Source of the DNA: Minisyncoccota bacterium
Lineage (GTDB): Bacteria > Patescibacteriota > Minisyncoccia > UBA6257 > XYB1-36-10
Direction of reading: 5' to 3'
DNA: 62,266 bases
NCBI GenBank assembly: GCA_041651415.1
Contig: JBAZJH010000004.1
Span: 1-62,266, forward strand
A program made the position numbers and the translations under genes. Of this stretch, positions 14,100 through 30,283 are shown one piece after another (positions within the stretch are counted from its first letter, which is position 1; every line of letters begins with the position of its first letter). The notes beneath the pieces were generated by a model. That model was not told the origin of the DNA and did not search any database. It saw only the letters and a program-made list of their open reading frames with translations.

Positions 14100-15882
14100 A
14101 ATATTTTTTATAGGTTCCACTTCCATTAATCAATTCTTCGTGAGTGCCGGATTCGGCGACTTGGCCATTTTCAATAACAATTATTTTATCGGCTTTTATG
14201 ATGGTAGACAGACGATGAGCAATAGCAATAACAGTTTTGCCAATTTTTGTTTTTTCCAGAGCGTTTTGAATAGTTTTTTCCGTTTTGGCGTCCAAAGAAC
14301 TAGTAGCTTCATCAAGAATAAGAATTTCCGGATTTCTTAAGATGGCTCGAGCAATAGCGATTCTTTGCTTCTGGCCACCGGAGAGTTTAACGCCGCGTTC
14401 GCCGAGAATAGTATTATAATTTTCCGGAAGATTTTTTATAAATTTATCTATATTGGCTATTTTTGCGGCTTCCTCGGCATCTTTTAAAGAAGTTTTTGAA
14501 GGAGAACCGTAAAGAAGATTGTTTAAAATAGAATCATTAAAAATAATCACATCTTGAGAAATGAAGCCGATTTTTTGGCGCCAACTTTTGAGATTAAGTT
14601 CTCTAATTTCTTTATCATCTATAAATATTTCACCGCTATCAGGGAAAAAAAGGCCGGCCAGCAAATTGGCAATTGTAGATTTTCCCATGCCAGTCGGGCC
14701 GACGAGAGCGATAAAATCTCCTTTTTTTATTTCAAAATTCAAATTATTAATAACAGGACGGTCTTTTTCATAAGAAAAACAAACATTATTGAAGGATATC
14801 TTGTTTCCAAATGATTTTAAAACGAATTCTCCTTCTTTTATTTTCATTTTTTTAGAGATATTAAGTTCAGTCTCGTAATTTTTAAAAGCAGGGGCATGTT
14901 CAAACATACCAGAAATTGATTGTAAAAAAATATTAACCTCAGAAAAAAGACGGAGAAAAATATAAAGGTAAGCGATAATAAACGGCAAATTAGAGATAAT
15001 GTCCAAATTGAGAACTTTAGAAGAAAAAATAATAAGGACAATAATTGAAGACATGACAAGAATTTCCGTGATAAAGGGAATAGAGTTTGTTTGTTTAGAT
15101 TGGCTGTAATTAAGAAGAGCCATATTAGTGGTTATTTTATTAAATCTGTTCTTTTCCGCATCTTCAGTTCCTGATATTTTAATAAGAGGAATACTCCCGA
15201 GCATTTCGATCATGCGAGAATGGAGGTTTTTAGCTTCTTCAGTTAATATTTGTCCGGTCCTCTTAACTCTGTTTAAAATGTTTCTGAAAAAAGGGAAAAA
15301 GAACAAAAAGAAAACAAAGATTAAAAAAGTGAGTTTCCAAGAAATAAGAAAAAGAATAAATCCATAAACAATAATTTTACTGAAATTACTTATAAGATTA
15401 AGCAAGACAAAAATGAAGGCGACAATACTATTTGTAAAAACATTGATATTAGTAACTACTTCTCCGGATTTCATAGAGTAAAAAAATTTCAAACTAGAAT
15501 CTGTTATGGAATTGAAAATATTATTTTGCAAATCTCTTTTGATCAAATTCCTAGTTTTTTCCAAAGTAATTGTTTTTAAATAATTAAAAATACTTCTTAA
15601 AATAATCATAACAAGAGCGAAGATGAGAAGTTTGATTAGAATATCAACTTTTTCACCATGGAAAAAATATTTTTGAATATTTTCAAAGGCGGGGAAAAAG
15701 GGGTTGGCGGATTCGGATATTAAATTTTGAAAAAAAGGAATAATGGCGCCAATAGAGAAACCATCGAAAAGAGAGCTTAATAAACTGAAAATTACCACAA
15801 GAAGAGCAAGTTTCTTGTAGTTTTTAAGATAATTTAATGATTTTTTGAAGTAATAAAGCTTTGTTTTTAAATAGAGATTCAT
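14077..15882 (-). CDS. ABC transporter, fused permease/ATPase (MsbA/PglK/Wzk-like), probable lipid-linked glycan flippase
   Basis: Six-TM N-half, Walker A GPTGMGKS, signature LSGGQKQR, ILDEATSSLD, AHRL. The flippase role is inferred from context. Confidence 0.85.
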   Translation of the reverse strand: MNLYLKTKLYYFKKSLNYLKNYKKLALLVVIFSLLSSLFDGFSIGAIIPFFQNLISESANPFFPAFENIQKYFFHGEKVDILIKLLIFALVMIILRSIFNYLKTITLEKTRNLIKRDLQNNIFNSITDSSLKFFYSMKSGEVVTNINVFTNSIVAFIFVLLNLISNFSKIIVYGFILFLISWKLTFLIFVFFLFFFPFFRNILNRVKRTGQILTEEAKNLHSRMIEMLGSIPLIKISGTEDAEKNRFNKITTNMALLNYSQSKQTNSIPFITEILVMSSIIVLIIFSSKVLNLDIISNLPFIIAYLYIFLRLFSEVNIFLQSISGMFEHAPAFKNYETELNISKKMKIKEGEFVLKSFGNKISFNNVCFSYEKDRPVINNLNFEIKKGDFIALVGPTGMGKSTIANLLAGLFFPDSGEIFIDDKEIRELNLKSWRQKIGFISQDVIIFNDSILNNLLYGSPSKTSLKDAEEAAKIANIDKFIKNLPENYNTILGERGVKLSGGQKQRIAIARAILRNPEILILDEATSSLDAKTEKTIQNALEKTKIGKTVIAIAHRLSTIIKADKIIVIENGQVAESGTHEELINGSGTYKKYYDLQFKN

Positions 15883-15901: not shown

Positions 15902-17131
15902 TTATTTGACAGATTTTATTTCTTGTTTTTCAAGATAATCAAGAATTCTTTTGGAGGCCAGGGAATCAAGAAAGCCAGTGTTTTTAAGAAGATATTCGTC
16001 TCTTTTTTTCGGAATTATTTTGAGATCGGTTAGGTTATTTTTTTTAAGGAAAGATTTTATTTTTTTATAAGATAAAAACTCGGAAACTCCAGGAGCATCA
16101 AAAAGGGAACGATAGAAGAAAGAGGAGCGAGAAGCATTATTAAGAAATTTTGGCGCAAATATATTCAGGCAATAAATATTAGATACGGCTGATTCAAGAA
16201 TACTGGAGCTGCAAAATTGAATAGATAAGTCTGATAAAACAAGAGCTTCAAAACTTTTATGCGGAAACCAGTTCTCATCGTCAACGATAATAAGATCAGA
16301 GTTTTTTTTAATAGCATCTGGTTCAGAGTGTTTGGGGCGACTCTTAACAATTAAAAGAGCATTATTTTTAACGCACCATTTTTTAATAATTCTAATGATA
16401 TTCGCGTATTTTATTCCGAAAAGACTTTCCCAAATAAATTTGAAGTATCCGGATGAAAGACATTTTAAAAATGATTTGAGACGATTAGGTTCGCCGAAGA
16501 CGCGACTAATCCAAAAGGGGTCTTTATTGGTTATGTTTAAGGAAAACAAGAGAACAACTTTTTGGTTTGGAGAAATTCCATACTGTTGGCGAATAATTCT
16601 TTTATTGGCGAGGAAATTTAGAGATTCGCGAGGGGGAAAACCAATAGGAATAAATTTAAAAGATTTTTCTTTTGACAGCGGATAGGCTTTTAAAAAAGAG
16701 TTAATGGTTTCCTGACTATAAACAAAAAAGCCGTCAAGAATGTCGAGAAGTTTGGGATCCATATTAAAATGATCGCCATACCACTGCAAACAAAAAAGTT
16801 TGAAATTTAGATTATCTGTTTTTTGAAAAAAATCATCGAAAGAATCTTCTCTGAAAGGAAGCGAAAAAACTATTGAAATTTCGTTTTCTTTTATGAGAGA
16901 AATAAGGTCGGATGATTTATTAAAATAAAGAATATCGGTTTTTTCTATTTGAGGAATCTTTAGGTTTTCTTTAGAAAGAGAATAAAGATTTTTATTGTAA
17001 GTTGGGTTTTTATTATTTTGACATAAAATAAAAACTTGATGGTGGCGATTCAAGGATTCAATAATGACGGGAGCATAGGCTTTAATACTTGATGAACGAT
17101 CAAGAAGAAAGCCGATTTTTTTATGAATCAT
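15902..17131 (-). CDS. Uncharacterised soluble protein, probably GT-B fold (CDP-glycerol glycerophosphotransferase / nonulosonate transferase-like)
   Basis: 409 aa, two Rossmann-like halves, VKSRPKH and SDLSIQFCSSSILES segments; embedded in the glycan operon. Confidence 0.4.
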   Translation of the reverse strand: MIHKKIGFLLDRSSSIKAYAPVIIESLNRHHQVFILCQNNKNPTYNKNLYSLSKENLKIPQIEKTDILYFNKSSDLISLIKENEISIVFSLPFREDSFDDFFQKTDNLNFKLFCLQWYGDHFNMDPKLLDILDGFFVYSQETINSFLKAYPLSKEKSFKFIPIGFPPRESLNFLANKRIIRQQYGISPNQKVVLLFSLNITNKDPFWISRVFGEPNRLKSFLKCLSSGYFKFIWESLFGIKYANIIRIIKKWCVKNNALLIVKSRPKHSEPDAIKKNSDLIIVDDENWFPHKSFEALVLSDLSIQFCSSSILESAVSNIYCLNIFAPKFLNNASRSSFFYRSLFDAPGVSEFLSYKKIKSFLKKNNLTDLKIIPKKRDEYLLKNTGFLDSLASKRILDYLEKQEIKSVK

Positions 17132-17826
17132 AATGTTTCAGCGCTAAAAAAATCAGAGACGTTATTTTTAATTATTAATTCATAAACGGATCTTTTCAGT
17201 TCTTGATTTTCAAGATTAGGATTAAATTGAATTCCGACAGTCGGCGTTTTAAGCCAGCGCACTTCATTTTTAGCAAGAGTAAGACGTTTATTCATTAGCG
17301 CTTCCGTGATGATTAACTCTAAGCAAACTTTTTGGATGAAAGATACACGGTTCATAATATCAATATTAGCGGAGGGGAGAATGGGGGAAATGGCTTGAAC
17401 AATAATAGCGCCGTGGTCAATATCAGTGTCAGCAAGGTGGGCAGTGGCGCCAAAAAACTTAATACCGGAAGAAAAAGCCTGAAAAAGCGCTTTGAATCCT
17501 TTAAAAGAAGGAAGGAGGGATTCATGAAAGTTGATACAGGGAAAATTAGAAAGAAGAGGAAGAGTAATGAGTCGAGAAAAGAAAAGAAAACAACAGTCGA
17601 TATTACCTTGTTTAATCAACCAATCATTGGATTTTTTACTGAAAATATTATTATCTTTTTCTTCAAAACGAATTTGCGGAAGATGGCGATCGGCGGCAAC
17701 TTGTTCAATACCGCAAGAACGATCAGTGATAATGAAGTATTTGTTTTCGGGCCAGAAATTTTTCGCGATGTCATAAAAAGCGGCAAAAGCACTGCCTTCA
17801 GAGGAACTTATCACGGCAATTCTCAT
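17128..17826 (-). CDS. PurN-like formyltransferase (formyl_trans_N), probable sugar N-formyltransferase
   Basis: INFHESLLPSFKG and GATAHLADTDIDHGAII motifs (10-formyl-THF binding). No pur genes nearby. Confidence 0.75.
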   Translation of the reverse strand: MRIAVISSSEGSAFAAFYDIAKNFWPENKYFIITDRSCGIEQVAADRHLPQIRFEEKDNNIFSKKSNDWLIKQGNIDCCFLFFSRLITLPLLSNFPCINFHESLLPSFKGFKALFQAFSSGIKFFGATAHLADTDIDHGAIIVQAISPILPSANIDIMNRVSFIQKVCLELIITEALMNKRLTLAKNEVRWLKTPTVGIQFNPNLENQELKRSVYELIIKNNVSDFFSAETL

Positions 17827-18461
17827 AGTTTTAAAGGAGATTTTTTATAAAGATAAGTTGTATATTCAAAAAAAGAGGTGTCGTGGCGGATTTTAAAAAA
17901 GCGGGTAAGTTTTTCCGTTTTTTTGAGAAGGAGAGCCGGGTCATAATAAAAGTTTTCAGGATTTTTAAAATCAACTCGAGAAGTCAAATTATTAAATGCT
18001 ATTCCAAGTTTAGCAAAAGACCACATTTTATTAATTAAGCGGAACATAAATTTTTCCATAACAGAATCAGTGGCGTGCAGTTTTTGGGTAAGAAGGCCGT
18101 TGGCGATGACGTAATCAAAACGATTACGGCTAGAAAAAGAAAATATATCCTTATTCAGAAATTTAGCAGAAGGATGGGATTTTTTTGCAAGAGCAATCAT
18201 TTCGGGAACAATGTCGATGCCGGTGTAATTAAGGGAAATTTTTTGGCGTTGAGCAATTTCTAAAAGACTACCATAGCCGCAACCGACATCAAGAATGGAA
18301 GGAATTTGGTTTTTAGGATGATTGACTATGATTTCTAACATAAGATAGGAACGCAAATCGGCACTGGCTTGATTTTTCCAGTCAACTCCTTTGGCGGTTG
18401 GACCGTAAGCTGAAAAAGTGGAATGGTAGTGCTTTTTAAAATTGCGAGTGATAGAATCCAT
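17823..18461 (-). CDS. Class I SAM-dependent methyltransferase
   Basis: ILDVGCGYG, GIDIVPEM, FDYVIANG motifs. True start is MDSITRNF at 18461; the longer track ORF is the antisense of the DUF218 gene. Confidence 0.8.
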   Translation of the reverse strand: MDSITRNFKKHYHSTFSAYGPTAKGVDWKNQASADLRSYLMLEIIVNHPKNQIPSILDVGCGYGSLLEIAQRQKISLNYTGIDIVPEMIALAKKSHPSAKFLNKDIFSFSSRNRFDYVIANGLLTQKLHATDSVMEKFMFRLINKMWSFAKLGIAFNNLTSRVDFKNPENFYYDPALLLKKTEKLTRFFKIRHDTSFFEYTTYLYKKSPLKL

Positions 18462-18468
18462 AAAAAGG

Positions 18469-18497
18469 AGTATAGTGTGGGAATTGGCAAAATTCAA
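18469..18497 (-). promoter_or_regulatory. Sigma70-type promoter, positioned for a leaderless transcript
   Basis: Minus strand TTGAAT-17 nt-TATACT, followed by 7 nt and then the ATG at 18461. Confidence 0.55.
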
Positions 18498-18516
18498 TAG
18501 TGTTTTTTTATTTTTT

Positions 18517-19164
18517 ATGATTAAAGAAAGGCAAAAAAAAGGAACTAAAGCAGCAAAAGGAGCAGTTGTTGTTTTGGGCGGAACGGTAAAAAAGGGGAAA
18601 AAGGAATGGCATACTTGTGAGTTTGACGAGGGGGACAGATTCGGCGTAACAGGAGATAAATTAAGAGTATTAGTCGGAGCTTTTATTTTTAAGAAATTAG
18701 AAAATAAAAGAATTGATTTTGATATTATTGCTTCCGGAGGAAAAATAGAAGAGGGGATTTTTATAGCAGAAGTGATAAAAAAGGAATTAATAGTTTTAGG
18801 AGTGCCGGAAAGAAAAATCAAAGAAGAAAAAAAATCACGGAATACTTTCCAGCAATTTTTAAATATACAGACAGCAGCTAAAAAAAATAAATATAAAGAG
18901 CTAATGTTTATCACAAACGAATGGCACAAACCCAGAGTAAAAATAATTTTAAGAGAAGCGCCAAAATTGGAGAATTTAAGAAAAATGAAAAAGGAAGGAA
19001 AAATTAAAATTTTGGGAGCGGAAAAAATAGTTTTAAAGAGTGATAGAAAAGAATGGGAGAAAAAAATAAAAAAAGCTTATGCAAGTTTGGCAATAAAAAA
19101 AAGAATCGGATTGGAGAAAAAAGGGATTGAAGATATAAAAAAAGGAAGATATATTTTCAGATAA
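18517..19164 (+). CDS. YdcF/DUF218 (SanA/ElyC-like) family protein
   Basis: VVVLGG, IASGG, EKKSRNT and ITNEWHKPRV motifs. ATG at 18517 preferred. Confidence 0.75.
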   Translation: MIKERQKKGTKAAKGAVVVLGGTVKKGKKEWHTCEFDEGDRFGVTGDKLRVLVGAFIFKKLENKRIDFDIIASGGKIEEGIFIAEVIKKELIVLGVPERKIKEEKKSRNTFQQFLNIQTAAKKNKYKELMFITNEWHKPRVKIILREAPKLENLRKMKKEGKIKILGAEKIVLKSDRKEWEKKIKKAYASLAIKKRIGLEKKGIEDIKKGRYIFR

Positions 19165-19181
19165 ATTTTTTGAGAAGAAAA

Positions 19182-19207
19182 AAACCGCAGACAGAAGTCT
19201 GCGGTTT
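19182..19207. terminator. Probable bidirectional intrinsic terminator between convergent genes
   Basis: AAACCGCAGAC-AGAA-GTCTGCGGTTT perfect 11-bp stem flanked by A/T tracts. Confidence 0.7.
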
Positions 19208-19214
19208 CAAAATA

Positions 19215-20318
19215 TTAATTAATAAGAGAAAAAGTGAGAGGATCTCCGCGGCTGATGTCACATTTTGCGGTTTTACCCAAAAGATCAAAAAAATAACGAG
19301 TGGCGAGTCCGGGAGCGTTTGCGGTACGGAGACCGCGAATATTACCTTGAGTTAGCAATTCTCCAGTTTTTATGTTTTTTATGGCAATAATGACGCGGCG
19401 GAAACCGGCAAATTGTTTTTCGGTATCGTTTTTAGGGCCATAAATGATTTGGCCGAAAAGCGGTCCGTTTTTGATTTTGGAGGCAAGGCGGGATCGATCG
19501 CTGGGGAGTAATTTTTCATCGGACCGGATATTATCCACCATTGATTTAAACTCCAACTCATCAAGAGAAAAAGCATCATCTAAGATGAAAGGGTTATGTT
19601 GTAAAACCAGATGTTTTTCAATGATGGAAGCTCCAAGTATGGCAGCAGCGCGGGCGATATCGGTTCCCCCGGCGTTTTCAGAGAGACCTATTTCAACATT
19701 GAAGCGTTCTTTCAGGTCTAGCATAGTGGCGAGATTGGCAGTAGCGGAAGGGGAAGCTGAATCGTAAGATGTGAGACAGAAAAGCAGAATGAGATCTTTT
19801 GCTCCAAAATTGCGGAGAGTTTGAATGGAATAAGTCACTTCTTCCAAAGAATCAAGACCAGTGGAAGCAATGATGGGTCGGCCGGTTTTTGCCACCTTTT
19901 CCAAAAAAGGAATGAAGTTGAATTCATAGGAGGCAATTTTGTAGCAGGGGGGATTAAATTCTTCCAAAAAATCAACAGCACTTTCGTCAAAAGGAGTGGA
20001 AAAAGTTTCCAATCCATATTCGGCCGCTAAAGCAGAAAGTTGCGGAAACCAATTCCATGGAGTAGAGGCTTCTTCATAAAGTTTATAGAGCGTTCTACCT
20101 TTCCAGTTCCCAGCAGCTTGAAACCAAGGTTGAGGAGAATCAAGTGTCATAGTGCTTGCGGTGTAAGTTTGAAGCTTTACAGCGTCAGCACCAGCACGAG
20201 CGGCAGCTTTTACTAACTCTTTGGCTTGATAAAAATCTCCTTGATGATTACAGGAAATTTCAGCGATGATAAAAACTGGATGTCCAATGCCGATTGAGTA
20301 ATTTCCGATTTTGGTCAT
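19215..20318 (-). CDS. pseI: Nonulosonate (pseudaminic acid-type) synthase, NeuB/PseI family with C-terminal SAF domain
   Basis: IIAEISCNHQG, GADAVKLQTY, STPFD, YKIASYE, IIEKHL motifs; pseB and pseC in the same locus. Confidence 0.8.
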   Translation of the reverse strand: MTKIGNYSIGIGHPVFIIAEISCNHQGDFYQAKELVKAAARAGADAVKLQTYTASTMTLDSPQPWFQAAGNWKGRTLYKLYEEASTPWNWFPQLSALAAEYGLETFSTPFDESAVDFLEEFNPPCYKIASYEFNFIPFLEKVAKTGRPIIASTGLDSLEEVTYSIQTLRNFGAKDLILLFCLTSYDSASPSATANLATMLDLKERFNVEIGLSENAGGTDIARAAAILGASIIEKHLVLQHNPFILDDAFSLDELEFKSMVDNIRSDEKLLPSDRSRLASKIKNGPLFGQIIYGPKNDTEKQFAGFRRVIIAIKNIKTGELLTQGNIRGLRTANAPGLATRYFFDLLGKTAKCDISRGDPLTFSLIN

Positions 20319-20348
20319 AAAATTCTCCTTACCAATATAGAGAATAAG

Positions 20349-21239
20349 TTATTCTTTGCGAGCGTAGATGGTTATCTCGCGGCCAATTCCAAGTTCAGCA
20401 AAGTTTCGAAAGAGTTTTCTCTTGAATGGATTGTCGTGTTTGGCGAGCGTTTGTTCAAAGAGGACTCTTTTTTTATGAATCATTTTTCCTATTTCAGGGC
20501 AACCGACGTATTGGTCGCCAAAAAGAATAAACATTTCTAACGGAAAAGTCGATTCTTTAAGGATTACTTTGAAGCCAACACTTTCAATTAGTTTTACCAA
20601 GGTGGAGACGGTAAAATAATTGATGTGCACAGGAGCGGTTACCCACCATTCATCAAGATGATATTCTTGATTAGCGATTGTCTGCAAAACATTAAACTCA
20701 TTCGGCACTCTAACAATTAAGAGGCCGTTATCCACTAAAATGTTATTAATGTTTTGCAAGATGACGTTTGGTTCAAGCAGATGTTCAAGAACACCCAAGA
20801 GAACGGCAGTGTGGAATTTTTCCTGAACGACAGAATTTAGTTCTTCGATGTGAGATCGAACGACATTCAGACCGGATTCTCTAGCGTTCTTAATTGCCTG
20901 AAACGAAGGATCTAAACCGAAAGCGTCATAACCTTTTTCTTGGCAATAATGCAAAAAACTGCCGAAGCCACAACCGATATCGATGATTCTATTGCCAGGC
21001 GCTTTAGAGTTGACAATTTCGATAATATCAGCGTATTGAATGCCTAAAAAATCTTTTTCCTCTTTCTGATTCTGAATTTCAGGAGCGGAATCTTGAATTT
21101 GTCCCTCTCGGTAGTTTCCGCCATAGAATTGTTCTTCGTAGTAGGCTTTGAGAGTTTCACAACTGGGCAGAGGAGAAAGGTGAAAATATCCTTTCTCTTT
21201 ATCGAAGATAACAGAAAACTTGCCGGCATTTTCTTTCAT
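20349..21239 (-). CDS. Class I SAM-dependent methyltransferase
   Basis: IIDIGCGFG, VLEHL, VRVPNE, HINYF motifs; AAGGAG SD before the ATG at 21239. Confidence 0.8.
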   Translation of the reverse strand: MKENAGKFSVIFDKEKGYFHLSPLPSCETLKAYYEEQFYGGNYREGQIQDSAPEIQNQKEEKDFLGIQYADIIEIVNSKAPGNRIIDIGCGFGSFLHYCQEKGYDAFGLDPSFQAIKNARESGLNVVRSHIEELNSVVQEKFHTAVLLGVLEHLLEPNVILQNINNILVDNGLLIVRVPNEFNVLQTIANQEYHLDEWWVTAPVHINYFTVSTLVKLIESVGFKVILKESTFPLEMFILFGDQYVGCPEIGKMIHKKRVLFEQTLAKHDNPFKRKLFRNFAELGIGREITIYARKE

Positions 21240-21347
21240 TTTTTTCTCCTTTTTCAATTATTATTCAGTTTTAGAATGCTGGAAGTAAAATAACTTTTTT
21301 TTGCAAAAAAGTCAATTTAAAGGGAGAAAAAATGTCAGAAAAGAAAA

Positions 21348-22637
21348 TTAGCGAATTTTAAAAATATCGGTAATAGGGTCTCCTTTAAGATTTTTTCTTA
21401 AGGTTTTTTTATCAAGAAACTCTTTTAGTTTTTTAAAAATACAGCCATAAGCATTAATAACCGTGTCTAGATCTTTTTTAGTATGGCTTAAATTGAGAAT
21501 GTGGTTGCCAATCCAAAGAATATTTTTTTCCAAAAGCTCCTGCTGGATATAGCTTTTAATTTCGATAGCGGCAAAGCCGTTAGAGCTTGAAACAAGAACT
21601 GATTGCCAGGGAACGATTCCGACAATTATGACAGTATCTCCCAGATTATTTTTTTTGATTAAACGGTCCAGATTTTTTTTGAGATAGAGAGCTTTTTGCT
21701 TAATGACGGACGGAAACTTTTCTTTTTCCATCACTTTTATAGTGGCAATGGCGGCAGCAAGAGACAGACATTCTCCGCCAGCGGTGAAAGAGAAAAAAAT
21801 GTCTTCCATTTTTTTCATATATTTAGCTTTGCCGACAACAGCAGAAATAGGCATGCCGTTAGACATAGCTTTGCCAAAGGTGGCGAGATCGGGCGTGACT
21901 TTATAAAGAGCTTGCGCTCCGCCGAGACTAGTTTTCCAACCGCTGGCGACTTCGTCAAAAATAAGAAGAGCGCCATATCTATGAGTAATTTTTTTAACAG
22001 CGGCAAGAAAACCAGGAGAAGGAGCTTCATAAGTAGCTGGCTCCAAAATAACGGCAGCTATTGATTTGGAATATTCCTTAAAGATTTTTTCAAGGGAAGA
22101 GATGTCGTTAAAGGTGAATTTATGAGACAGAGCGCGAGTGGCTTCAGGAATGCCAAGATTTCGAGTGGTGGTGCCAATAGACCAATCGTGCCAACCATGG
22201 TAGCCACCGACGGCAATATGATCTCGGCCGGTGACAGCGCGGACGAGACGAATGGCGGCAGTAGTGACATCGGAACCATTCTTGCCAAAACGAACCATTT
22301 CGGCGCAGGGAATATGTTTTTTTAGCAGAAGAGCCAGCTCGTATTCCAAGGAGGAAGCAAGAGAAAAGACGATTCCTTTCTTAAGCTGATTTTTAATAGC
22401 TTTATCGATAGCCGGATATTGATAACCGAGGCTGATGGCGGCTAATCCACTAACCAAATCAATATATTCATTTCCGTCGATATCCCAAAGGTGAGAACCG
22501 CGGCCGCGGACAGCAAAAAGAGGAGCTACTTCTTTAATGTATTGAAGATAGCTTTTTGAAAAGGTTTGTGAAGCGGTGGGAACAATGGAAACGACTTTTT
22601 TAAATAAAGAATTGCTTTTGTTAAATTTTGATTTCAT
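21348..22637 (-). CDS. Class III PLP aminotransferase (GSA-aminomutase-like), glycan-locus type
   Basis: GSHLWDIDGNEYID, FGKNGSD, YHGWHD, LLIFDEV, DLATFGKAMSNG motifs. Confidence 0.85.
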   Translation of the reverse strand: MKSKFNKSNSLFKKVVSIVPTASQTFSKSYLQYIKEVAPLFAVRGRGSHLWDIDGNEYIDLVSGLAAISLGYQYPAIDKAIKNQLKKGIVFSLASSLEYELALLLKKHIPCAEMVRFGKNGSDVTTAAIRLVRAVTGRDHIAVGGYHGWHDWSIGTTTRNLGIPEATRALSHKFTFNDISSLEKIFKEYSKSIAAVILEPATYEAPSPGFLAAVKKITHRYGALLIFDEVASGWKTSLGGAQALYKVTPDLATFGKAMSNGMPISAVVGKAKYMKKMEDIFFSFTAGGECLSLAAAIATIKVMEKEKFPSVIKQKALYLKKNLDRLIKKNNLGDTVIIVGIVPWQSVLVSSSNGFAAIEIKSYIQQELLEKNILWIGNHILNLSHTKKDLDTVINAYGCIFKKLKEFLDKKTLRKNLKGDPITDIFKIR

Positions 22638-23377
22638 CAATAATATTTTTTAAAGCCGCTATTGTCAGTGTAACGGCTGTTAAGATTGAAAATGTGGGGA
22701 TTTTTATCTAATAAATCCACATAATGAGAGAGTGGAGCGTCAATGGGACTATGAGCGATGAGAAATTTGATTACTTCGAAATCTTCCGGATAATCAAGCG
22801 TTAAACGATAGCGAGAAAGATTTTCCGGGTAGTTAAAAAAACTTTTTTTAATTTTTTTATTTTTACGCATAATAGGAGTGACATGCTCGCGCTCGGCGGG
22901 GAGACGAGCGGAGGAAGCGGCAAGAGCCAGAAGTTCTTTAGTAAAGACTTCGCCGCCAATACCATCAGGAAAAGTTTCATAATTTTCGGCAGAGGTGCTG
23001 GCAAAATCAACCGATTGACTGAAAAAAAGATCAATTAAATTATTGATGATGGCCGGGTCATTTAGTGGACAATCACTTGTGAGGCGAATAATGTGCTGAT
23101 AATTCGGATAAGCGAGAGAGCAGAGATGGTAGCGATTAAGAACATCATCTTCAGAACCGCGGAAGCAATCAATATTAAGGCGACGACATTCATCAATAAT
23201 GGCATCATTTTCCGGATTAGTTGAAGTAGCGACAATGATTTTATCTATTTTAGAACATAATTTATATCGTTTAATTTGATAACCGAGAATAGTATCTTCT
23301 TCATTAACTTTAAAAAGAACCTTGCCGGGCAGGCGGGTAGACTTTAGACGAGCTTGGATAATGGCGAGAGTAGACAT
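22637..23377 (-). CDS. spsF: SpsF-type acylneuraminate cytidylyltransferase
   Basis: IIQARLKSTRLPGKVL, FRGSEDDVLNRY, RLTSDCPL, REHVT, RLTLDYPED motifs. Confidence 0.8.
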   Translation of the reverse strand: MSTLAIIQARLKSTRLPGKVLFKVNEEDTILGYQIKRYKLCSKIDKIIVATSTNPENDAIIDECRRLNIDCFRGSEDDVLNRYHLCSLAYPNYQHIIRLTSDCPLNDPAIINNLIDLFFSQSVDFASTSAENYETFPDGIGGEVFTKELLALAASSARLPAEREHVTPIMRKNKKIKKSFFNYPENLSRYRLTLDYPEDFEVIKFLIAHSPIDAPLSHYVDLLDKNPHIFNLNSRYTDNSGFKKYY

Positions 23378-23379
23378 AA

Positions 23380-24045
23380 TTAATCGTTAAGAGTTCTAAT
23401 TATTTGAAAGGCTTCAGCAAAATGATAGCCAACTTCCAGGCCGCGATATTGAGCCAGAATTTTAATACTTTCCAAGGAACGGGGATGAGGGTATTCTCTT
23501 AATTCATCTTCATATATTTTTAAAATGTCTATTTTTTTAGGAAGAAATTTTGCGATGTCGTTATATTCAGTCGGGCAAAAAGCATAAGTTTTCATTTGCC
23601 ATTCAGTGGAAGAAGGCGTTTCAAAAGTGAGAATTTTTTTAACAGAGAATTTAGGTTGAGGACGGCAAACAGTTAAGACTGCTTGAAAGGTCAAGCGATG
23701 GTCAATATTCAGATCGTGGGCGTGGTGCGTATAAATAATACTGGGATTAAGTTTGTTAACGGTGTTTTCAATAATTTTAATTATTTTAAGCAGGGGAATA
23801 GAATCGAACTGATTATCCGGAAGTTTTTCCATTATGAGATTACTGACTCCAAGAAGACGAGACACTTCTTTAGCTTGTCGCTCTCTTTTATTGATATCAG
23901 CACCGGAATCTCGGGAAGTTTCGCCATCACTTAAGATGAGAATACTGACATTATCTCCGGATGAAATATGTTTAAGAATTGTTCCGCCAACGCCTAAAAC
24001 TTCGTCGTCCGGGTGAGCGGTTATGACTAGAATATTATTTTTCAT
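23380..24045 (-). CDS. PIG-L/LmbE family N-deacetylase
   Basis: TAHPDDEVLG and DLNIDH motifs. Confidence 0.85.
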   Translation of the reverse strand: MKNNILVITAHPDDEVLGVGGTILKHISSGDNVSILILSDGETSRDSGADINKRERQAKEVSRLLGVSNLIMEKLPDNQFDSIPLLKIIKIIENTVNKLNPSIIYTHHAHDLNIDHRLTFQAVLTVCRPQPKFSVKKILTFETPSSTEWQMKTYAFCPTEYNDIAKFLPKKIDILKIYEDELREYPHPRSLESIKILAQYRGLEVGYHFAEAFQIIRTLND

Positions 24046-24718
24046 ATATATCCACTTGAGCGATTATTTTGTTATTTTTGAATTTAGCTTTAGAAAGGTC
24101 AAATTTTAATTTCTTTGTTTCTAAAAATGCTTGCGGATATCCTTCAGCATCAAGCATTCGGATAATATCATATGTTTTATTTAAATTAAAAGAGGGTAAA
24201 ATTTTACTTTGTTTCGGCTTTCTTCTTTTAAACAAAACTATTTTTCCTTGCTGGGATTTTGGTTTTGGATGATTGTTAATGATAAAAGGAATTATCTTGC
24301 GAAAAATGTTTTTAGCGGCACGGCGAAAAATTTCTTCCGCATTTCCTTTTAAACTTAAATTTTTTTGGCAATAAATATCTCCTGTATCCAAACCGGCATT
24401 AACCCTAAGAGCGGAAATTTTGGTGCGAGTATGCCCGCGCATAATCAGATTTTGCAGGGGACTGCCGCCGCGGCCGTAAGGCAAGTCGGTCATATGAAAA
24501 ACAATGCATTCAAAATTAGACCAGATATCTTCCGAAATAATCCAGGACCAGTGAGGAAAAAAAATAATTTTTGGATTTATTTTTTTGATTTTAAGAGGAG
24601 TGAGATCCTTTTTGTCAGTAATTAAAAACCAGTTGTTTTTTTTATCTTTGTTTTTTAAATTATTAAATTCTTCGTTATTCCAGGATTTAGCGGTGGCTAC
24701 AAGATAATTTTCTTTCAT
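24035..24718 (-). CDS. Fmt-like formyltransferase (short), probable sugar N-formyltransferase
   Basis: FFPHWSW, FHMTDLPYGRGGSPLQN, GLDTGDIY, IRMLDAEGYP motifs. Confidence 0.8.
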   Translation of the reverse strand: MKENYLVATAKSWNNEEFNNLKNKDKKNNWFLITDKKDLTPLKIKKINPKIIFFPHWSWIISEDIWSNFECIVFHMTDLPYGRGGSPLQNLIMRGHTRTKISALRVNAGLDTGDIYCQKNLSLKGNAEEIFRRAAKNIFRKIIPFIINNHPKPKSQQGKIVLFKRRKPKQSKILPSFNLNKTYDIIRMLDAEGYPQAFLETKKLKFDLSKAKFKNNKIIAQVDIYEK

Positions 24719-24726
24719 AATATTTA

Positions 24727-25425
24727 TTATACATTTTTGCGGCCGCTTCTTATTACGTTAAGAGAATTTGGCCCTTCGTTAAAAATCAGGTCAATAACGG
24801 ACAGATGAGAAATAAAATCTCCCCAGAGCTGATCATAAACAGGATGTTCAAAGTTTTGATATTCCAGTTTTATATTATTTTTTATAAAGTGATTATCGGC
24901 ATCAATATAATCTTTGGCTCCAACCGGGGACAGATATTCATCAGCGCCGATTTTTCGGCAAATATCACAAAGCAGTTCTGATTTTTTTCCTTGAGGATTA
25001 AGATTTGATGAATAAAATACTTGGCAATTCAGACCAATAATTTTTTTTATCCATAGAGTCAGAGGAATAGAAATATCAATAAGTTTTGTAATTTCTTGAG
25101 AATAAAGATGACCTAATTCATTAAAATATTTTTCAAAGAACGGAGCTTTGGCATAGTTTATTTTTATAGACTGCAGATGTTTTTCTTTCCATTGCTGAGA
25201 GTTATCCAAAACAACTTCATTTATCTTTTGATGATATTTTCCTTTACTTAAAACAGGAATAGACAGCCATAATTCACCACTGGGAGATTTAATTCGATTT
25301 CTTTGCTCCCAATCTCTTTTGATGTGCTGAACATGGTCTAGAAACACAAAAGCGTCACATTGATCCATTAAATCAAAATAACCCATCCAAGGAAGATAAT
25401 TCGGCTGCATAATGACGGCTTTCAT
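24727..25425 (-). CDS. wbqC: WbqC family protein
   Basis: IMQPNYLPWMGYFD, FVFLDHVQ, QRNRIK, YLSPVGAKDY, LSVIDLIFNEG motifs. Confidence 0.85.
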   Translation of the reverse strand: MKAVIMQPNYLPWMGYFDLMDQCDAFVFLDHVQHIKRDWEQRNRIKSPSGELWLSIPVLSKGKYHQKINEVVLDNSQQWKEKHLQSIKINYAKAPFFEKYFNELGHLYSQEITKLIDISIPLTLWIKKIIGLNCQVFYSSNLNPQGKKSELLCDICRKIGADEYLSPVGAKDYIDADNHFIKNNIKLEYQNFEHPVYDQLWGDFISHLSVIDLIFNEGPNSLNVIRSGRKNV

Positions 25426-25432
25426 AAGGTAA

Positions 25433-25461
25433 ATAATAGATTAAAAGATGAGGAGAGTCAA
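25433..25461 (-). promoter_or_regulatory. Sigma70-type promoter for the wbqC operon, leaderless
   Basis: Minus strand TTGACT-17 nt-TATTAT, then 7 nt and the ATG at 25425. Confidence 0.6.
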
Positions 25462-25532
25462 CTTGATTTTTTTTAATTTAGTATTATTATATTGGGAGAA
25501 TTTTAAAAGAGAAAAAAGACAGAAAGGAAAAA

Positions 25533-26594
25533 ATGATGGAATTTATCACGACTAAAAAGTATCTCCGCGGCAACTTTAATCGAGTTATCAAGTATGAGGA
25601 GTTAAAGATTCTTAGAGCGATTGAAGTCGGTCAAGATTTAAATTTAAGAAACGACAAAGAAAATCTTGGTTTATTAGAGCAATACGGGAATGAGGGATAT
25701 AAAATAATTCCGATCAAGAGAATTTCTTTTAACAGCAACGCTCTTCTCGATGATTTTCCAAAGAGAGTGATGGTGGAAATGACAGGAAGATGCAATTTGG
25801 CATGCCGGATGTGTCCAAGAAAAGACATGAAGCGTCCGCTCGTTAATATGGATAAGGAACTGTATAAAAAAATAATCAACGAATTGGATGAATACGGAAT
25901 TGATGCTTTTTGGTTTTTCCATTTTGGAGAATCGATTTTGCATCCGGATTGGAAAGAATTAGTCAGTTATGCCGGCGAGAAAAAGAATCTTGGCATAACT
26001 TGGTTTTCCACAAACGGAGTTTTATTTGGCGAAGAAGAGATTGATTTTGTTTTAAATTCCAAGATTACCTTTCTTAATTATTCTTTGCATGGCACAAATG
26101 AGGAGGTGTACAGCTTTGTTTCTTCAAAAGAGAATTATCCGAATGTTCGCAAGCATTTGGAGATGATACTTTGGAAAAAGAAGGAGCTAGGCAAGGGTCC
26201 GATAATTCATATTCAGATGATTGACCAAGAGGGAACTCATCATGACATTGACGAATTTCTGGAAACTTTTTATCGTACCGGAGAGATATTAAGCATTATT
26301 TCTCTCGAGTATACAAATTTGCCGGAAAATCGGTATGGGTTAAAACGAAACCGGTCTGGGGAATTAAAAAAATGCAATCGAATTTCGAGAGGAGATTGTT
26401 TTGTTGATTGCTCAGGTTTTGTGAAGCTTTGCGACGCCGATTACGATAGTCTAAGAGCTATCGGCAATTTAAGAGACGGAACTCTTCATGAGTTTTGGAA
26501 TTCTCCGGCCAGAAAACTCGTTTATGAATTGAATGACCAGGGGAGGATGTTTGAGCTTGAATGTTGTCGTGATTGCGCTGATTTTGATCTTTGA
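25533..26594 (+). CDS. Radical SAM protein with C-terminal SPASM/twitch-like Cys cluster
   Basis: CNLACRMC (CxxxCxxC), FGESILHP, STNG, and C-terminal C...C...C...CxxC. Confidence 0.85.
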   Translation: MMEFITTKKYLRGNFNRVIKYEELKILRAIEVGQDLNLRNDKENLGLLEQYGNEGYKIIPIKRISFNSNALLDDFPKRVMVEMTGRCNLACRMCPRKDMKRPLVNMDKELYKKIINELDEYGIDAFWFFHFGESILHPDWKELVSYAGEKKNLGITWFSTNGVLFGEEEIDFVLNSKITFLNYSLHGTNEEVYSFVSSKENYPNVRKHLEMILWKKKELGKGPIIHIQMIDQEGTHHDIDEFLETFYRTGEILSIISLEYTNLPENRYGLKRNRSGELKKCNRISRGDCFVDCSGFVKLCDADYDSLRAIGNLRDGTLHEFWNSPARKLVYELNDQGRMFELECCRDCADFDL

Positions 26595-26612
26595 TTTTTA
26601 TTAGGAAAATCT

Positions 26613-26642
26613 ATCCCGTTCTTAAATTTTTAAGGACGGGAT
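26613..26642. terminator. Probable bidirectional terminator
   Basis: ATCCCGTTCTTA / TAAGGACGGGAT stem followed by a T run, between the convergent radical SAM and AKR genes. Confidence 0.6.
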
Positions 26643-27565
26643 TTTTTTAGCGGTGTTTTCCAGAGGGATGGATTAACAATGGCTTTTTCAGTTTGAGAAA
26701 ATTTTTCTTCCATAAAAAAGAAAAAGTCATTGGGCAGAGGAGGAAGATTAGTGGCAACGAATAGGACTTCCTTAATTTCAGCAGGAGTATTAGCGCCGAA
26801 AACAATAAAGTCGAGATTGGGATTTTTAAGAGTGAAAGCGAGAGTGGCGGCAAGAGGAGAGAGATGACAGCGATTAAGATAACTAATGAATTCATTTAAG
26901 AGGGGTTTAGCGCGGTTAAGATGAGGAGGAACTTTTTTAGAAGGCATAAGCAAAAGGCCTTGCAAGAAAGGGCTGCGAGCAAAGACAGTGATATTGTTTT
27001 TTTTAGCAAGATTAAAAAAGCCAGCGTGATTAAGACGTTGGTCAAAAATATTATAAGGAATTTGGATATAATCGACCGGCATATTAGCGGCGTAGAGAGC
27101 TTCGGCTTCGTCATAAATAGAGACGCCGAATTTTTTAATTAAACCATCAGATTTAGCTTTTTTAAGACCATTAATTATGTGGATATTATAAACATATTGA
27201 GGAGTATGGAGCAGATAACCATCCAGTTGGTCGATATTGAGGCGTTGGAGAGATTTATTAATTTCCAGGCGGATAATATCAGATGCTTTAACACCATCAG
27301 GATAATCATTTAAGGCGTAGGGTTTTAATTTGGAGATAATTTTTATTTTATTATTCAAATTGCGGGATTTAATCCATTTTCCCAAGACATCTTCGGCAGC
27401 GCCATAAGCAAAGGCAGTGTCAAAAGTATCAATGCCAAAAGTTAAAGCATTGTCTAAAATAGAAAAAGATTCTTTTAGAGAAGGCTGGCCTTTTATATTA
27501 TTTAAACCGTATGGCAGACCGAGCTCAACAGTGCCAAGAACCAGTTTAGAGTTTTTTTTATTCAT
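26630..27565 (-). CDS. Aldo/keto reductase
   Basis: LVLGTVELG, FDTAFAYG, IISKL, YLLH, FGVSIY, QIPYNIFD motifs. Confidence 0.85.
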   Translation of the reverse strand: MNKKNSKLVLGTVELGLPYGLNNIKGQPSLKESFSILDNALTFGIDTFDTAFAYGAAEDVLGKWIKSRNLNNKIKIISKLKPYALNDYPDGVKASDIIRLEINKSLQRLNIDQLDGYLLHTPQYVYNIHIINGLKKAKSDGLIKKFGVSIYDEAEALYAANMPVDYIQIPYNIFDQRLNHAGFFNLAKKNNITVFARSPFLQGLLLMPSKKVPPHLNRAKPLLNEFISYLNRCHLSPLAATLAFTLKNPNLDFIVFGANTPAEIKEVLFVATNLPPLPNDFFFFMEEKFSQTEKAIVNPSLWKTPLKKSRP

Positions 27566-28574
27566 AGTTATATTTCTTTTCTTTCATAAACATCGGAACA
27601 ATTAATCCGCCGAAGCCCTTCTTAAAGTGGGAGATATTGAGCTGCTTATCAGTGGGTGACCAATAGGGCTGGTGTCCTATTTCATAAAATTTCATTTTTT
27701 TGTTTTTCATATATTTAATAGCGGACCATTGAATTACGTGAGAGGTAGGAATGTTGTTGATATTAGGATCATTACAGGCAGAACCATAGAAGGCGTTGTC
27801 TTTGAAGGTGTAGAAATAAGAGACACCAACAGGAATTTTATCAAGAAAGGCAAAGACAATAAAATTTTTGCTATCTTTAATTAATTTAAACATAATATCA
27901 AAAGTTGAAGAGGGGCGGTTAGAGACGCCAAATCTTTTCTTATAGAGCAGGGTATATTGATTAAAAATCTCAGAGGTTATATTTGAAGAATCAAAAACAG
28001 AAGTAGTAAGGATTTTTTCTCCTCTAGTTATATCAGCTCTATGCCCATGGCGGAGATTTCTTTTTAATTCGTTTAATGATTTAGACAAGTCAATTATCTG
28101 GCTGGAAGCATTGACATTGTTATAGCTAAAAAAGGAAAACATTTTGTCGGCGGTAGAGTATTTTTTATTTAAAAAGGAAAGAGAGAGGGAAGAGAGAACG
28201 AATCGGGAAACGGAAACATTGTTTTCTCGGGATAGTTTTTCTATTTCTTCAAGAATTATTTGATATATTTTTTCTTTATCAGAAGAGAGAATATTATTAG
28301 AAAGGGCGGGCATGGGGGTGGCCCAACTACTGAAATAAAAGCCGTTAATCAAATCGTTTTCCGATTTTTTTATTTCGAGAATCAGAGGAATGACAGCAAG
28401 TATTTTTCCGTTTTTTTGAATAGAAAAACTAAAATTTTTAGCTTCAGAATCTAATTGATATTTAAAGATAAAATTAATCCAATCAGAGGTGTGCCAAAAC
28501 CAAGCATCATTTGATTGTAGGCAGAAGCTGTTCCATTTTTTTTCTTCAGTATTCGAAAAGGGTATTATCTGCAT
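27558..28574 (-). CDS. GNAT / FemAB-like acyltransferase
   Basis: IIDLSKSLNEL..NLRHGHR, AFYGSAC, HVIQWSAI, HFKKGFGG: tandem-GNAT FemABX-like pattern. Confidence 0.7.
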   Translation of the reverse strand: MQIIPFSNTEEKKWNSFCLQSNDAWFWHTSDWINFIFKYQLDSEAKNFSFSIQKNGKILAVIPLILEIKKSENDLINGFYFSSWATPMPALSNNILSSDKEKIYQIILEEIEKLSRENNVSVSRFVLSSLSLSFLNKKYSTADKMFSFFSYNNVNASSQIIDLSKSLNELKRNLRHGHRADITRGEKILTTSVFDSSNITSEIFNQYTLLYKKRFGVSNRPSSTFDIMFKLIKDSKNFIVFAFLDKIPVGVSYFYTFKDNAFYGSACNDPNINNIPTSHVIQWSAIKYMKNKKMKFYEIGHQPYWSPTDKQLNISHFKKGFGGLIVPMFMKEKKYNYE

Positions 28575-28577
28575 AAT

Positions 28578-29561
28578 TTAGCAATTGTTAATCGCACATA
28601 CAATATCTTCCAGGTTTTTTTTACTCAAATATTGATGACAAGGGACAGCGAGGCATTTCTTATAAAGAGGATTAAACAGATTACGATTAATATCAAAATG
28701 AAGAATTTCAACATCGAAGTTTTTTCGAGATAGATCGTTTTTCATCTTAGAAAGCTTTTTTTCGGGAGCAAAAATAGGAAGAGCAAGAGGATTGGGATCT
28801 ATATTTGGATCGTGGTCGGGTATAAGAAATTCCGGAAGAATATTTTTTTTGAGGAAATTATAGTTTTCTTTTCTTTTTTTTAAGTCCGATTGCAAGGATT
28901 CCAGTGAAGGTGGAAAAAGATTTAAAGATTTTTGAGGAGTGGAATAAAAGGTGTGGTATTGGCTATAACATATTTCAGTGGCGGTTGAGGAAGGATGCCC
29001 TCGATAAGCTCTCAGAGCTTTACGGGCACACCAGTCGCTAAAGACTTTTTTTAGAAAATTTTCTTTTTGGTGAAATGGTTTTAAGTTTTGGCCAGAAACT
29101 TTTAAAAATCCTCCCATACCGGTGGGAAATATTTTTGAAAAACTAAAAATGGAAAAATTTCCAAAACTGCCTATATTTTTTCCTTTATACTTCGAATCAA
29201 AGGAATGGGCGCAATCTTCTATTATTAAAAGTTGTCTTTTTTTTGATTCAAGAATAACGGAATCCATATCTTGGGGATAGCCCCATTGATGGAGTATGAG
29301 GACAGCTTTTGTTTTTAAATCGGGAGTTTTGACTGGAAAAGAAGTTTGGTTGAGAATGGAGAGGACGCACTGACTTAGGAAATCGGGAATGAGGATGTGA
29401 TCGCAGCGTGATAGTTTGGATAGCTTCAGAGCTTCTAAAAGAGCGAATCTTCCTGAGCTGAAAATGCTTAGGGGGGAATTAAAAAAATATTCTAAAGTTT
29501 TTTTGACGTTAGATTTTTGAGGTCGGATTTTTTTGTTATAAGGGTAGATGGTTATAGGCAT
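28578..29561 (-). CDS. DegT/DnrJ/EryC1/StrS family PLP aminotransferase (short)
   Basis: SSGRFAL, IIEDCAHS, FSFSKIFP (PLP Lys), VPCHQYL motifs. Confidence 0.75.
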   Translation of the reverse strand: MPITIYPYNKKIRPQKSNVKKTLEYFFNSPLSIFSSGRFALLEALKLSKLSRCDHILIPDFLSQCVLSILNQTSFPVKTPDLKTKAVLILHQWGYPQDMDSVILESKKRQLLIIEDCAHSFDSKYKGKNIGSFGNFSIFSFSKIFPTGMGGFLKVSGQNLKPFHQKENFLKKVFSDWCARKALRAYRGHPSSTATEICYSQYHTFYSTPQKSLNLFPPSLESLQSDLKKRKENYNFLKKNILPEFLIPDHDPNIDPNPLALPIFAPEKKLSKMKNDLSRKNFDVEILHFDINRNLFNPLYKKCLAVPCHQYLSKKNLEDIVCAINNC

Positions 29562-30283
29562 TTTTCGATAATAAGATCTTCTCGTGAATCGGAAAAAGGA
29601 AGGCTAGATGATTGTTTTAAAAAAGAAAAACGGCGGATTTCGGGAGTATTTTTTAAAATTGATTCCAGAAGAGGTTTGGTTATAACAAGAGAAGAAGGAG
29701 CGGTGTTGATTTTATAGAAGCGATAAAAGAAATTAGTAGTTTCTTTTTTAATATAGTATTGAATGTTTTTTATAAAATTAATAATAGGACGGGATTGGCG
29801 GTGTTTTAAATTTGCTTCATATTTGTCTCTCAAAGGAATATCACCAATCAATATTCTTCCTCCAGGAGAAGTGGTTCGGATTAGTTCGAAAAAGAGTTTT
29901 TCAAGAGAGTTATAATTATCCAAATAATGGATAACGCTGTAACAGATAACAGCAGAAAATTGATTGTTAGGAAAATCTAATTTTTTATTGAGATCAACAA
30001 TTTTAAAGTCGGTCGGACAGAAAAATTTTTTTTGTCGGGCTATAAATAAAGCAGATGGAGCATTATCAGAAAGGGTAATTGATGAGCAAGGAAAAATATA
30101 TTGGGTGATGTCGCCAGTGCCGGAACCAACATCAAGAATTTTGTCTTCTTTTTTAAGATTTAGCTTAAGCGATATTTCTCGGGCAATTTTTTTAAATAAA
30201 AAAAGATGGAAAGAAAACATTCTTCCAGAGCGAAGGAAAGAAGGAGTTTTAGAAAGCTGGTTAAAGGAGTCGATGAATGACAT
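29552..30283 (-). CDS. Class I SAM-dependent methyltransferase
   Basis: ILDVGSGTG, YSVIHY, GGRILIGDIP motifs. Confidence 0.8.
   Translation of the reverse strand: MSFIDSFNQLSKTPSFLRSGRMFSFHLFLFKKIAREISLKLNLKKEDKILDVGSGTGDITQYIFPCSSITLSDNAPSALFIARQKKFFCPTDFKIVDLNKKLDFPNNQFSAVICYSVIHYLDNYNSLEKLFFELIRTTSPGGRILIGDIPLRDKYEANLKHRQSRPIINFIKNIQYYIKKETTNFFYRFYKINTAPSSLVITKPLLESILKNTPEIRRFSFLKQSSSLPFSDSREDLIIEKCL

Follow-up and report, generated by a model that had tools for sequence, protein, structure and literature searches.

A pseudaminic-acid-type nonulosonate locus with candidate N-acyl tailoring modules in a 741-kb Patescibacteria genome

Bacterial surfaces are capped by nonulosonic acids, whose N-substituents determine charge as well as recognition by phages and by the immune system. 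For most N-modifications besides acetyl, 7-N-formyl (PseJ) and acetimidoyl, we know of no enzymes. In this study, we examined a stretch of 62,266 nucleotides (the window) from a member of the Patescibacteria, which is contig 4 of a 10-contig, 741-kb genome rated 99% complete; the closest relatives carry the annotation Paceibacterota/Patescibacteria. It holds a nonulosonate locus that brings together four candidate N-modifying families: a WbqC family protein, a truncated Fmt-like protein of the type of Protein Data Bank (PDB) entry 1ZGH, a PIG-L/LmbE family de-N-acetylase and a FemX-fold protein. In so small a genome, every gene that is kept probably has a use.

The cytidine monophosphate (CMP)-activated nonulosonates of Candidatus Kuenenia carry one free amine and one N-formyl group, and the supplement of the same 2026 preprint lists, next to one another, a PIG-L deacetylase, a WbqC protein labelled 'unknown' and a protein of a formyltransferase family (10.64898/2026.04.20.719630). 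According to a citation in PMC11040635, PseJ is a formyltransferase that fills in the pathway to Pse5Ac7Fo, a formylated pseudaminic acid (Pse) (Reimer et al. 2018). In bacillithiol synthesis, BshC is genetically required for the addition of cysteine to glucosaminyl-malate (GlcN-malate) after the PIG-L enzyme BshB, a reaction that had never been reconstituted as of a 2018 review (PMC5790435). The window has the same PIG-L, WbqC and formyltransferase neighbourhood as KSMBR1_RS09820-09860 of Ca. Kuenenia stuttgartiensis. The association of the three genes is therefore not new, and the gene set has already been seen in other bacteria.

Separable modules in a nonulosonate locus

We read this part of the window as the sugar-tailoring half of a nonulosonate locus of the pseudaminic acid type, made of separable modules, with a probability of roughly 0.55. 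An earlier note made from the sequence alone had named five genes here as an N-acyl editing toolkit: a PIG-L deacetylase, two formyltransferases, WbqC and a FemAB-like protein. All five lie inside a locus with PseB, PseC and PseI, each of which exceeds its curated equivalog cutoff (Table 1). Between 32376 and 13122, the minus-strand genes are packed nearly gap-free; WbqC, the Fmt-like gene and PIG-L adjoin just upstream of the SpsF-like gene, as the note had described, with an 8-bp gap followed by an 11-bp overlap. The note had also supposed that these enzymes stand in for PseH, and the setting agrees: the PseH model (TIGR03585) has no match at E ≤ 0.1 across the whole genome. The best PseG (TIGR03590) score in the genome is 17.4 bits against a cutoff of 153.55, at a site outside the window locus, and hhalign comparison of a PseG-like profile with the open reading frames (ORFs) at 32500-33561 and 15902-17131 gave no signal of a hidden PseG. 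The former, a divergent 353-aa ORF on the plus strand beside PseB, has a weak Glyphos_transf match only. The PseF model (TIGR03584) reaches a weak 11.5 bits at the SpsF-like CTP_transf_3 gene and gives no other signal genome-wide; the SpsF-like enzyme is the likely CMP-activating step in PseF's stead.

The 1ZGH-type gene and PIG-L form a near-obligate pair. From 80 metagenome loci centred on the Fmt-like gene, counts were taken in the 40 of at least 5 kb, and PIG-L is present in all 40, nearly always as the next gene. The pair keeps company with PseI (37/40), PseC (29/40), PseB (22/40), PseG-like genes (23/40) and genes for PseH-like Gcn5-related N-acetyltransferases (GNATs; 15/40). Proteins in which a PseH/RimI-like GNAT is fused to a 1ZGH-type Fmt-like protein also exist among public sequences (P0130, 376 aa; P0177, 368 aa). 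A second sample covered 301 genomes of the phylum that contains loci L026 and L032; nine carry the 1ZGH-type gene, with PIG-L adjacent in 8/8 complete loci.

WbqC was surveyed in 80 genome loci drawn from a wide range of bacterial and archaeal phyla, with neighbours counted within 10 kb. PseI occurs in 51 of them, PseC in 50, PseG-like genes in 45 and PseB in 36, while PIG-L (16/80) and the 1ZGH-type gene (4/80) are less frequent. PseH-like GNATs, searched for by tblastn, were detected in only 3/80, and when 98 unassigned ORFs of 32 core WbqC loci were scanned against Pfam, the 25 commonest families included no GNAT; both observations speak for WbqC in PseH's place. Often WbqC stands directly after PseC (L018, L177). 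In a second class of contexts, Pse genes are missing and WbqC keeps company with PIG-L, a WecA-like transferase and an AAA_22 ATPase. In two loci (L109:7545-9993 and L123), the WbqC slot is taken by a PylC-like ATP-grasp ligase, recognised in L123 only by tblastn, which hints at a ligase role for WbqC; with an RmlD-like reductase and a metallophosphoesterase, this ligase stands ahead of the Fmt-like/PIG-L pair.

The full trio recurs in the Patescibacteria loci L007 and L018 and in two metagenome-assembled genomes, L026 (titled Omnitrophota) and L032 (titled Planctomycetales), which are placed in one phylum. Since the pair recurs in 40/40 and 8/8 loci and the trio is found elsewhere, the arrangement is not a matter of chance. 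The earlier note's treatment of the three genes as one module fails nonetheless: the pair stands without WbqC in 40/40 loci, often with PseG and PseH-like GNATs, and WbqC stands without the pair in most of its own loci, so WbqC is a separate add-on and the trio is not fixed. Every context found was a glycan locus, which agrees with the note's placement of these genes in glycan synthesis.

Among 300 sampled Patescibacteria genomes, 45 have a NeuB-type synthase, five WbqC and one the 1ZGH-type gene. Nonulosonate synthesis is thus fairly common in this group and the tailoring set rare. The open frames that hold NeuB-family matches in the candidate phyla radiation (CPR) are in many cases about 625-665 aa long, some two times the normal size, which points to a NeuB fusion within one family (f36).

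Candidate activities and neighbouring genes

The Fmt-like protein matches PDB 1ZGH at E 3.8e-80, a structural-genomics entry on which our literature search returned nothing, and its N-terminal subdomain is shortened. The family comprises at least 8000 proteins at 52-65% identity, in Patescibacteria, Clostridia, Euryarchaeota and Elusimicrobiota. We aligned 20 members sampled from several phyla: all 20 have Val where the N-x-H motif would have Asn, His75 and Asp111 do not vary, and FPHWSW and TDLPxGRGG appear as new invariant motifs. The protein is probably a sugar N-formyltransferase whose active site is altered. Immediately upstream of the main copy there is often a divergent paralog of about 210 aa with 26-32% identity (L117:9330-9968, L120:9366-9998 and about 11 other metagenome loci); the one copy examined, in L117, also lacks the catalytic Asn. 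In PIG-L, the metal-binding motifs AHPDDE and NIDH are intact; among NCBIfam models it matches BshB1 best, with 69 bits, under the equivalog cutoff of 182.5.

The AlphaFold2 model of WbqC (predicted local distance difference test, pLDDT, 94.6) is closest to BshC (4wbd; VIA-align Z 14.2, 221 of 232 residues aligned, root-mean-square deviation 3.3), followed by class I LysRS (Z 11.6) and GluRS, with MshC at Z 7.0. WbqC is accordingly predicted, from its model, to be a BshC-like, class-I-aminoacyl-tRNA-synthetase-like Rossmann enzyme and a candidate amide ligase on a sugar amine, a role that the earlier note had favoured and that gains support from this likeness. A search of the WbqC profile against PDB sequences gave no match, an ESM Atlas search returned only WbqC itself, and literature searches found nothing linking WbqC with BshC and nothing on AglU. 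Streptomyces operons have been described, in a figure legend, as proSx-GT4-WbqC-lmbE-tRNAProX-murG (PMC10404621), a link to tRNA that is a further hint of a ligase role. This operon could not be re-verified in 301 Actinomycetota genomes, of which only seven carry WbqC; two partial matches in large Actinomycetota genomes adjoin transposase and ThiF genes. Nor are tRNA genes enriched near WbqC (nine tRNAs across the 80 loci).

The PurN-like protein keeps the Asn-His-Asp triad, and its segments 'cINfHeSLLP' and 'diDhGaii' align to GART; on domain match and full triad it classes as a PF00551 formyltransferase. Its clade is tiny, with about nine close relatives found. The PDB match lists of both formyltransferases contain no PseJ entry, and no direct comparison with PseJ was made. 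The FemAB-like protein matches TIGR04421 over its full length (E 2.4e-29, 102.6 bits) below the cutoff of 250 and scores 17 bits on PF02388, under the cutoff of 24; 2150 cluster representatives are related to it. Its AlphaFold2 model (pLDDT 95.6) bears out the FemAB-like identity assumed in the note: the best Foldseek match is FemX (1ne9, E 3e-16, template-modelling score 0.66-0.68), and the top 13 matches are all aminoacyl-tRNA-dependent transferases. We therefore consider this tandem-GNAT protein a candidate aminoacyl-tRNA-dependent aminoacyl transferase. Together with its DegT-like neighbour, it follows WbqC also in L015.

Other companions recur as well. A class III aminotransferase is found in 13/40 Fmt-like-centred and 15/80 WbqC-centred loci, an aldo/keto reductase in 13/40 and 11/80, and a radical S-adenosylmethionine (SAM)/SPASM gene near WbqC in 10/80, including L007, L018 and L026. 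A promoter-like site just 5' of WbqC and a terminator-like hairpin with a 12-bp stem (19208-19181) directly 3' of the PseI stop codon, both consensus matches, suggest that WbqC through PseI form one transcription unit with the PurN-like gene in the next. A second strong terminator-like hairpin (26613-26642) separates the radical SAM gene from the aldo/keto reductase gene, which converge on it. The 409-aa protein between the PurN-like gene and the ABC exporter has as its sole match a weak one, to a BFO_1060 family glycosyltransferase model (E 2.4e-4), and could be a nonulosonate transferase. Downstream of the locus, among methyltransferase and glycosyltransferase genes, a DUF2334/polysaccharide-deacetylase-like protein (11781-12494, minus strand) may be a further deacetylase.

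Table 1. Genes of the nonulosonate locus, with positions in the window and profile matches (ABC, ATP-binding cassette; GSA, glutamate-1-semialdehyde; PLP, pyridoxal phosphate)
Gene product	Position	Strand	Match
PseB	31387-32376	-	TIGR03589, 449.9 bits (cutoff 407.75)
PseC	30284-31432	-	TIGR03588, 453.9 bits (cutoff 423.5)
Methyltransferase	29552-30283	-	
Short DegT-like PLP protein	28578-29561	-	TIGR04422 (PLP_IMCC1989), 47 bits; PF01041, partial match
FemAB-like/FemX-fold tandem-GNAT protein, 338 aa	27558-28574	-	
Aldo/keto reductase	26630-27565	-	PF00248, 134 bits
Radical SAM/SPASM protein, divergent from WbqC	25533-26594	+	PF04055 and PF13186
WbqC family protein, 232 aa	24727-25425	-	PF08889, 263 bits (cutoff 21.3; model positions 1-217 of 218)
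1ZGH-type truncated Fmt-like protein, 227 aa	24035-24718	-	Formyl_trans_N, 28.9 bits (cutoff 26.1); Formyl_trans_C_2, 74.4 bits
PIG-L/LmbE family de-N-acetylase, 221 aa	23380-24045	-	PF02585, 93.7 bits (cutoff 28.2)
SpsF-like CTP_transf_3 cytidylyltransferase	22637-23377	-	PF02348, 72.6 bits
Class III (GSA-aminomutase-like) aminotransferase	21348-22640	-	PF00202, 171.7 bits; PRK06209, 350 bits
Methyltransferase	20349-21257	-	
PseI (pseudaminic acid synthase)	19215-20318	-	TIGR03586, 344.8 bits (cutoff 340.25)
Methyltransferase	17823-18929	-	
PurN-like formyltransferase, 232 aa	17128-17826	-	PF00551, 71.6 bits
409-aa protein without Pfam match	15902-17131	-	
ABC exporter	14077-15882	-	
GT4 glycosyltransferase	13122-14126	-	

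A possible tailoring route and its alternatives

Most likely, the enzymes of this locus remove the sugar's acetyl groups and attach formyl or amino-acid groups. A modular scheme of how they might do so seems to us slightly favoured. By family membership, PseB and PseC make uridine diphosphate (UDP)-4-amino-4,6-dideoxy-N-acetylaltrosamine (AltNAc). WbqC would acylate the new 4-amine with an amino acid or other carboxylate in place of the missing PseH, and PIG-L would remove the N-acetyl group inherited from N-acetylglucosamine (GlcNAc). The 1ZGH-type enzyme would then formylate a free amine with 10-formyltetrahydrofolate from GlyA and FolD, for which the Ca. Kuenenia product offers a precedent if the formyltransferase there is 1ZGH-type. 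PseI would condense the sugar with phosphoenolpyruvate and the SpsF-like enzyme would add CMP; the PurN-like enzyme of the next operon could add a further formyl group, and the FemX-fold protein a tRNA-borne amino acid. The modules would thus each act on one of the sugar's two nitrogens. Because a PseH-like 4-amine acetylase is often near or fused to the Fmt-like protein, the Fmt-like/PIG-L pair probably serves the other nitrogen, which bears the GlcNAc-derived acetyl and would be freed by PIG-L. Beyond the family level these roles are ones that we infer, and the final sugar structure is beyond the reach of sequence alone.

A folate one-carbon supply, which the earlier note had asked for, is in place: contig 2 carries glyA (532.6 bits) and folD (70.5 bits) less than 3 kb apart, so serine can supply 10-formyltetrahydrofolate; fhs was not found in the genome. 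The same genome speaks to the view that both formyltransferases are housekeeping enzymes, a Met-tRNA formyltransferase and a glycinamide ribonucleotide (GAR) transformylase, that are simply situated in the locus. Public annotations do call their relatives 'methionyl-tRNA formyltransferase' and 'PurN'. Against this, a canonical fmt lies elsewhere (C1:230443-231222) and scores 204.8 bits on TIGR00460 (cutoff 201.5), where both window genes reach 37-38 bits; the PurN-like gene scores 70.5 bits on the PurN model (TIGR00639), under the cutoff of 150.1; purD is absent from the genome; and both genes travel with glycan genes. With a separate fmt and no purD, neither is needed for Met-tRNA or GAR, and we rejected these roles, which the note had seen as a threat to its proposal, as highly improbable.

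Whether the 1ZGH-type protein transfers formyl groups at all is less assured, since its family lacks the catalytic Asn. The Val in its place and the new invariant FPHWSW motif in that region, the shortened N-terminal subdomain, and the divergent neighbouring paralog that also lacks the Asn would all suit a protein that uses another acyl donor or that serves PIG-L as a substrate-binding partner. We think this unlikely, given that His and Asp are invariant, that the genome maintains a 10-formyltetrahydrofolate supply, and that the Ca. Kuenenia product is formylated, the last of these counting only if its formyltransferase is 1ZGH-type.

The product made by WbqC is where the readings part. The note's own scheme had WbqC add glycine and the Fmt-like protein formylate the glycyl alpha-amine, giving an N-formyl-glycyl nonulosonate. 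The contiguity of the three genes here and in L007, L018, L026 and L032 would fit, as would the Fmt-type C-terminal domain kept by the Fmt-like protein, with Fmt's precedent on Met-tRNA; GlyA makes glycine, and Escherichia coli O121, from which the name wbqC comes, has an amide-linked N-acetylglycine (PMC7685785). Set against these are the 40/40 loci in which the pair does without WbqC, the Ca. Kuenenia product of the trio, which was assigned a formyl group and a free amine and for which no glycyl mass was reported, and a literature search that found no paper assigning glycine transfer to WbqC. No evidence was found for a glycyl or N-formyl-glycyl product, and this scheme is quite improbable. 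What stands of the note's proposal is N-acyl editing in outline, borne by the PIG-L motifs, the missing PseH and the formyl supply; the fixed trio and the N-formyl-glycyl product do not.

Unlikely, too, is an outcome of the Ca. Kuenenia kind, where the sugar keeps one amine free and bears a single N-formyl group, and where WbqC is no acyl ligase and has an accessory or different part such as nucleotide-sugar handling or formate activation. The side-by-side genes of the SugarBase supplementary information and their formyl, free-amine CMP-nonulosonate argue for it, as do the nucleotide-binding HUP-type fold predicted for WbqC and a genome without PseG. Against it, PseG-like genes accompany WbqC in 45/80 loci, so WbqC is not a general PseG replacement; its position is interchangeable with an ATP-grasp ligase, and it pairs with PIG-L in glycan loci other than nonulosonate ones. 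Our own proposal for WbqC, an amide ligase of the BshC type, possibly fed by aminoacyl-tRNA, that acts in PseH's place and yields an aminoacylated and N-formylated sugar, is tentative and less likely than not.

Several observations weigh against the modular scheme and this part of it. The Asn-His-Asp triad of formyltransferases is incomplete in the 1ZGH-type protein, and the Ca. Kuenenia product lacks any extra acyl group for WbqC to account for. A UDP-releasing enzyme was not found in the genome. The tblastn search that detected few PseH-like GNATs near WbqC is insensitive for GNATs, and 13 of the 98 unassigned ORFs in the core WbqC loci are hexapeptide acyltransferases, which could do PseH's job. 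The WbqC profile compared with a four-sequence BshC (PF10079) profile gave an hhalign probability of 0.4%, with no sequence-level link; the likeness being structural only, WbqC may work like BshC and is not a BshC-family member. We know of no biochemistry for WbqC, the 1ZGH family or BshC.

The gene-neighbourhood data split the gene set into testable units, which narrows the experiments. Should WbqC be a BshC-type ligase, a 741-kb CPR bacterium would display an aminoacylated, N-formylated pseudaminic acid.

Comparison with described systems

The canonical CMP-Pse5Ac7Ac pathway comprises PseB, PseC, PseH, PseG, PseI and PseF. The window shares PseB, PseC and PseI with it and differs in having a probable SpsF-like activating enzyme in place of PseF, in a genome without PseH or PseG. 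Formyl in place of acetyl on a Pse nitrogen is an established idea from the PseJ branch; of the two window formyltransferases, one lacks the catalytic Asn. The FemX/FemAB transferases and Sbb17/Sba18 share the tandem-GNAT FemX fold with the window protein, whose gene differs in scoring below the Pfam FemAB and TIGR04421 cutoffs and in lying next to a short DegT-like gene within a nonulosonate locus.

In Ca. Kuenenia, the trio lies between dehydratase/transaminase genes and a NeuB-type synthase with a cytidylyltransferase, and O-methylation is shared with the window. The gene order there is PIG-L, WbqC and Fmt, the core is described as Leg-like and a nucleotidase is present; unlike the window, the cluster has no PurN-like or FemX-fold gene. 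Its product is known by mass spectrometry alone.

In bacillithiol (BshA/BshB/BshC) and mycothiol (MshA/MshB/MshC) synthesis, a PIG-L deacetylase frees a sugar amine and a class-I-aminoacyl-tRNA-synthetase-like enzyme adds an amino acid. The proposed route resembles these systems in both respects, with BshC nearest to the WbqC model and BshB1 the best NCBIfam match of PIG-L. WbqC, at 232 aa, is without the coiled-coil domain of BshC, and its proposed substrate is a nucleotide sugar or nonulosonate where that of BshC is GlcN-malate. The likeness ties the locus to the unsolved step of bacillithiol synthesis, and if it holds, working out WbqC, a small protein in a defined pathway, would give a handle on the BshC reaction.

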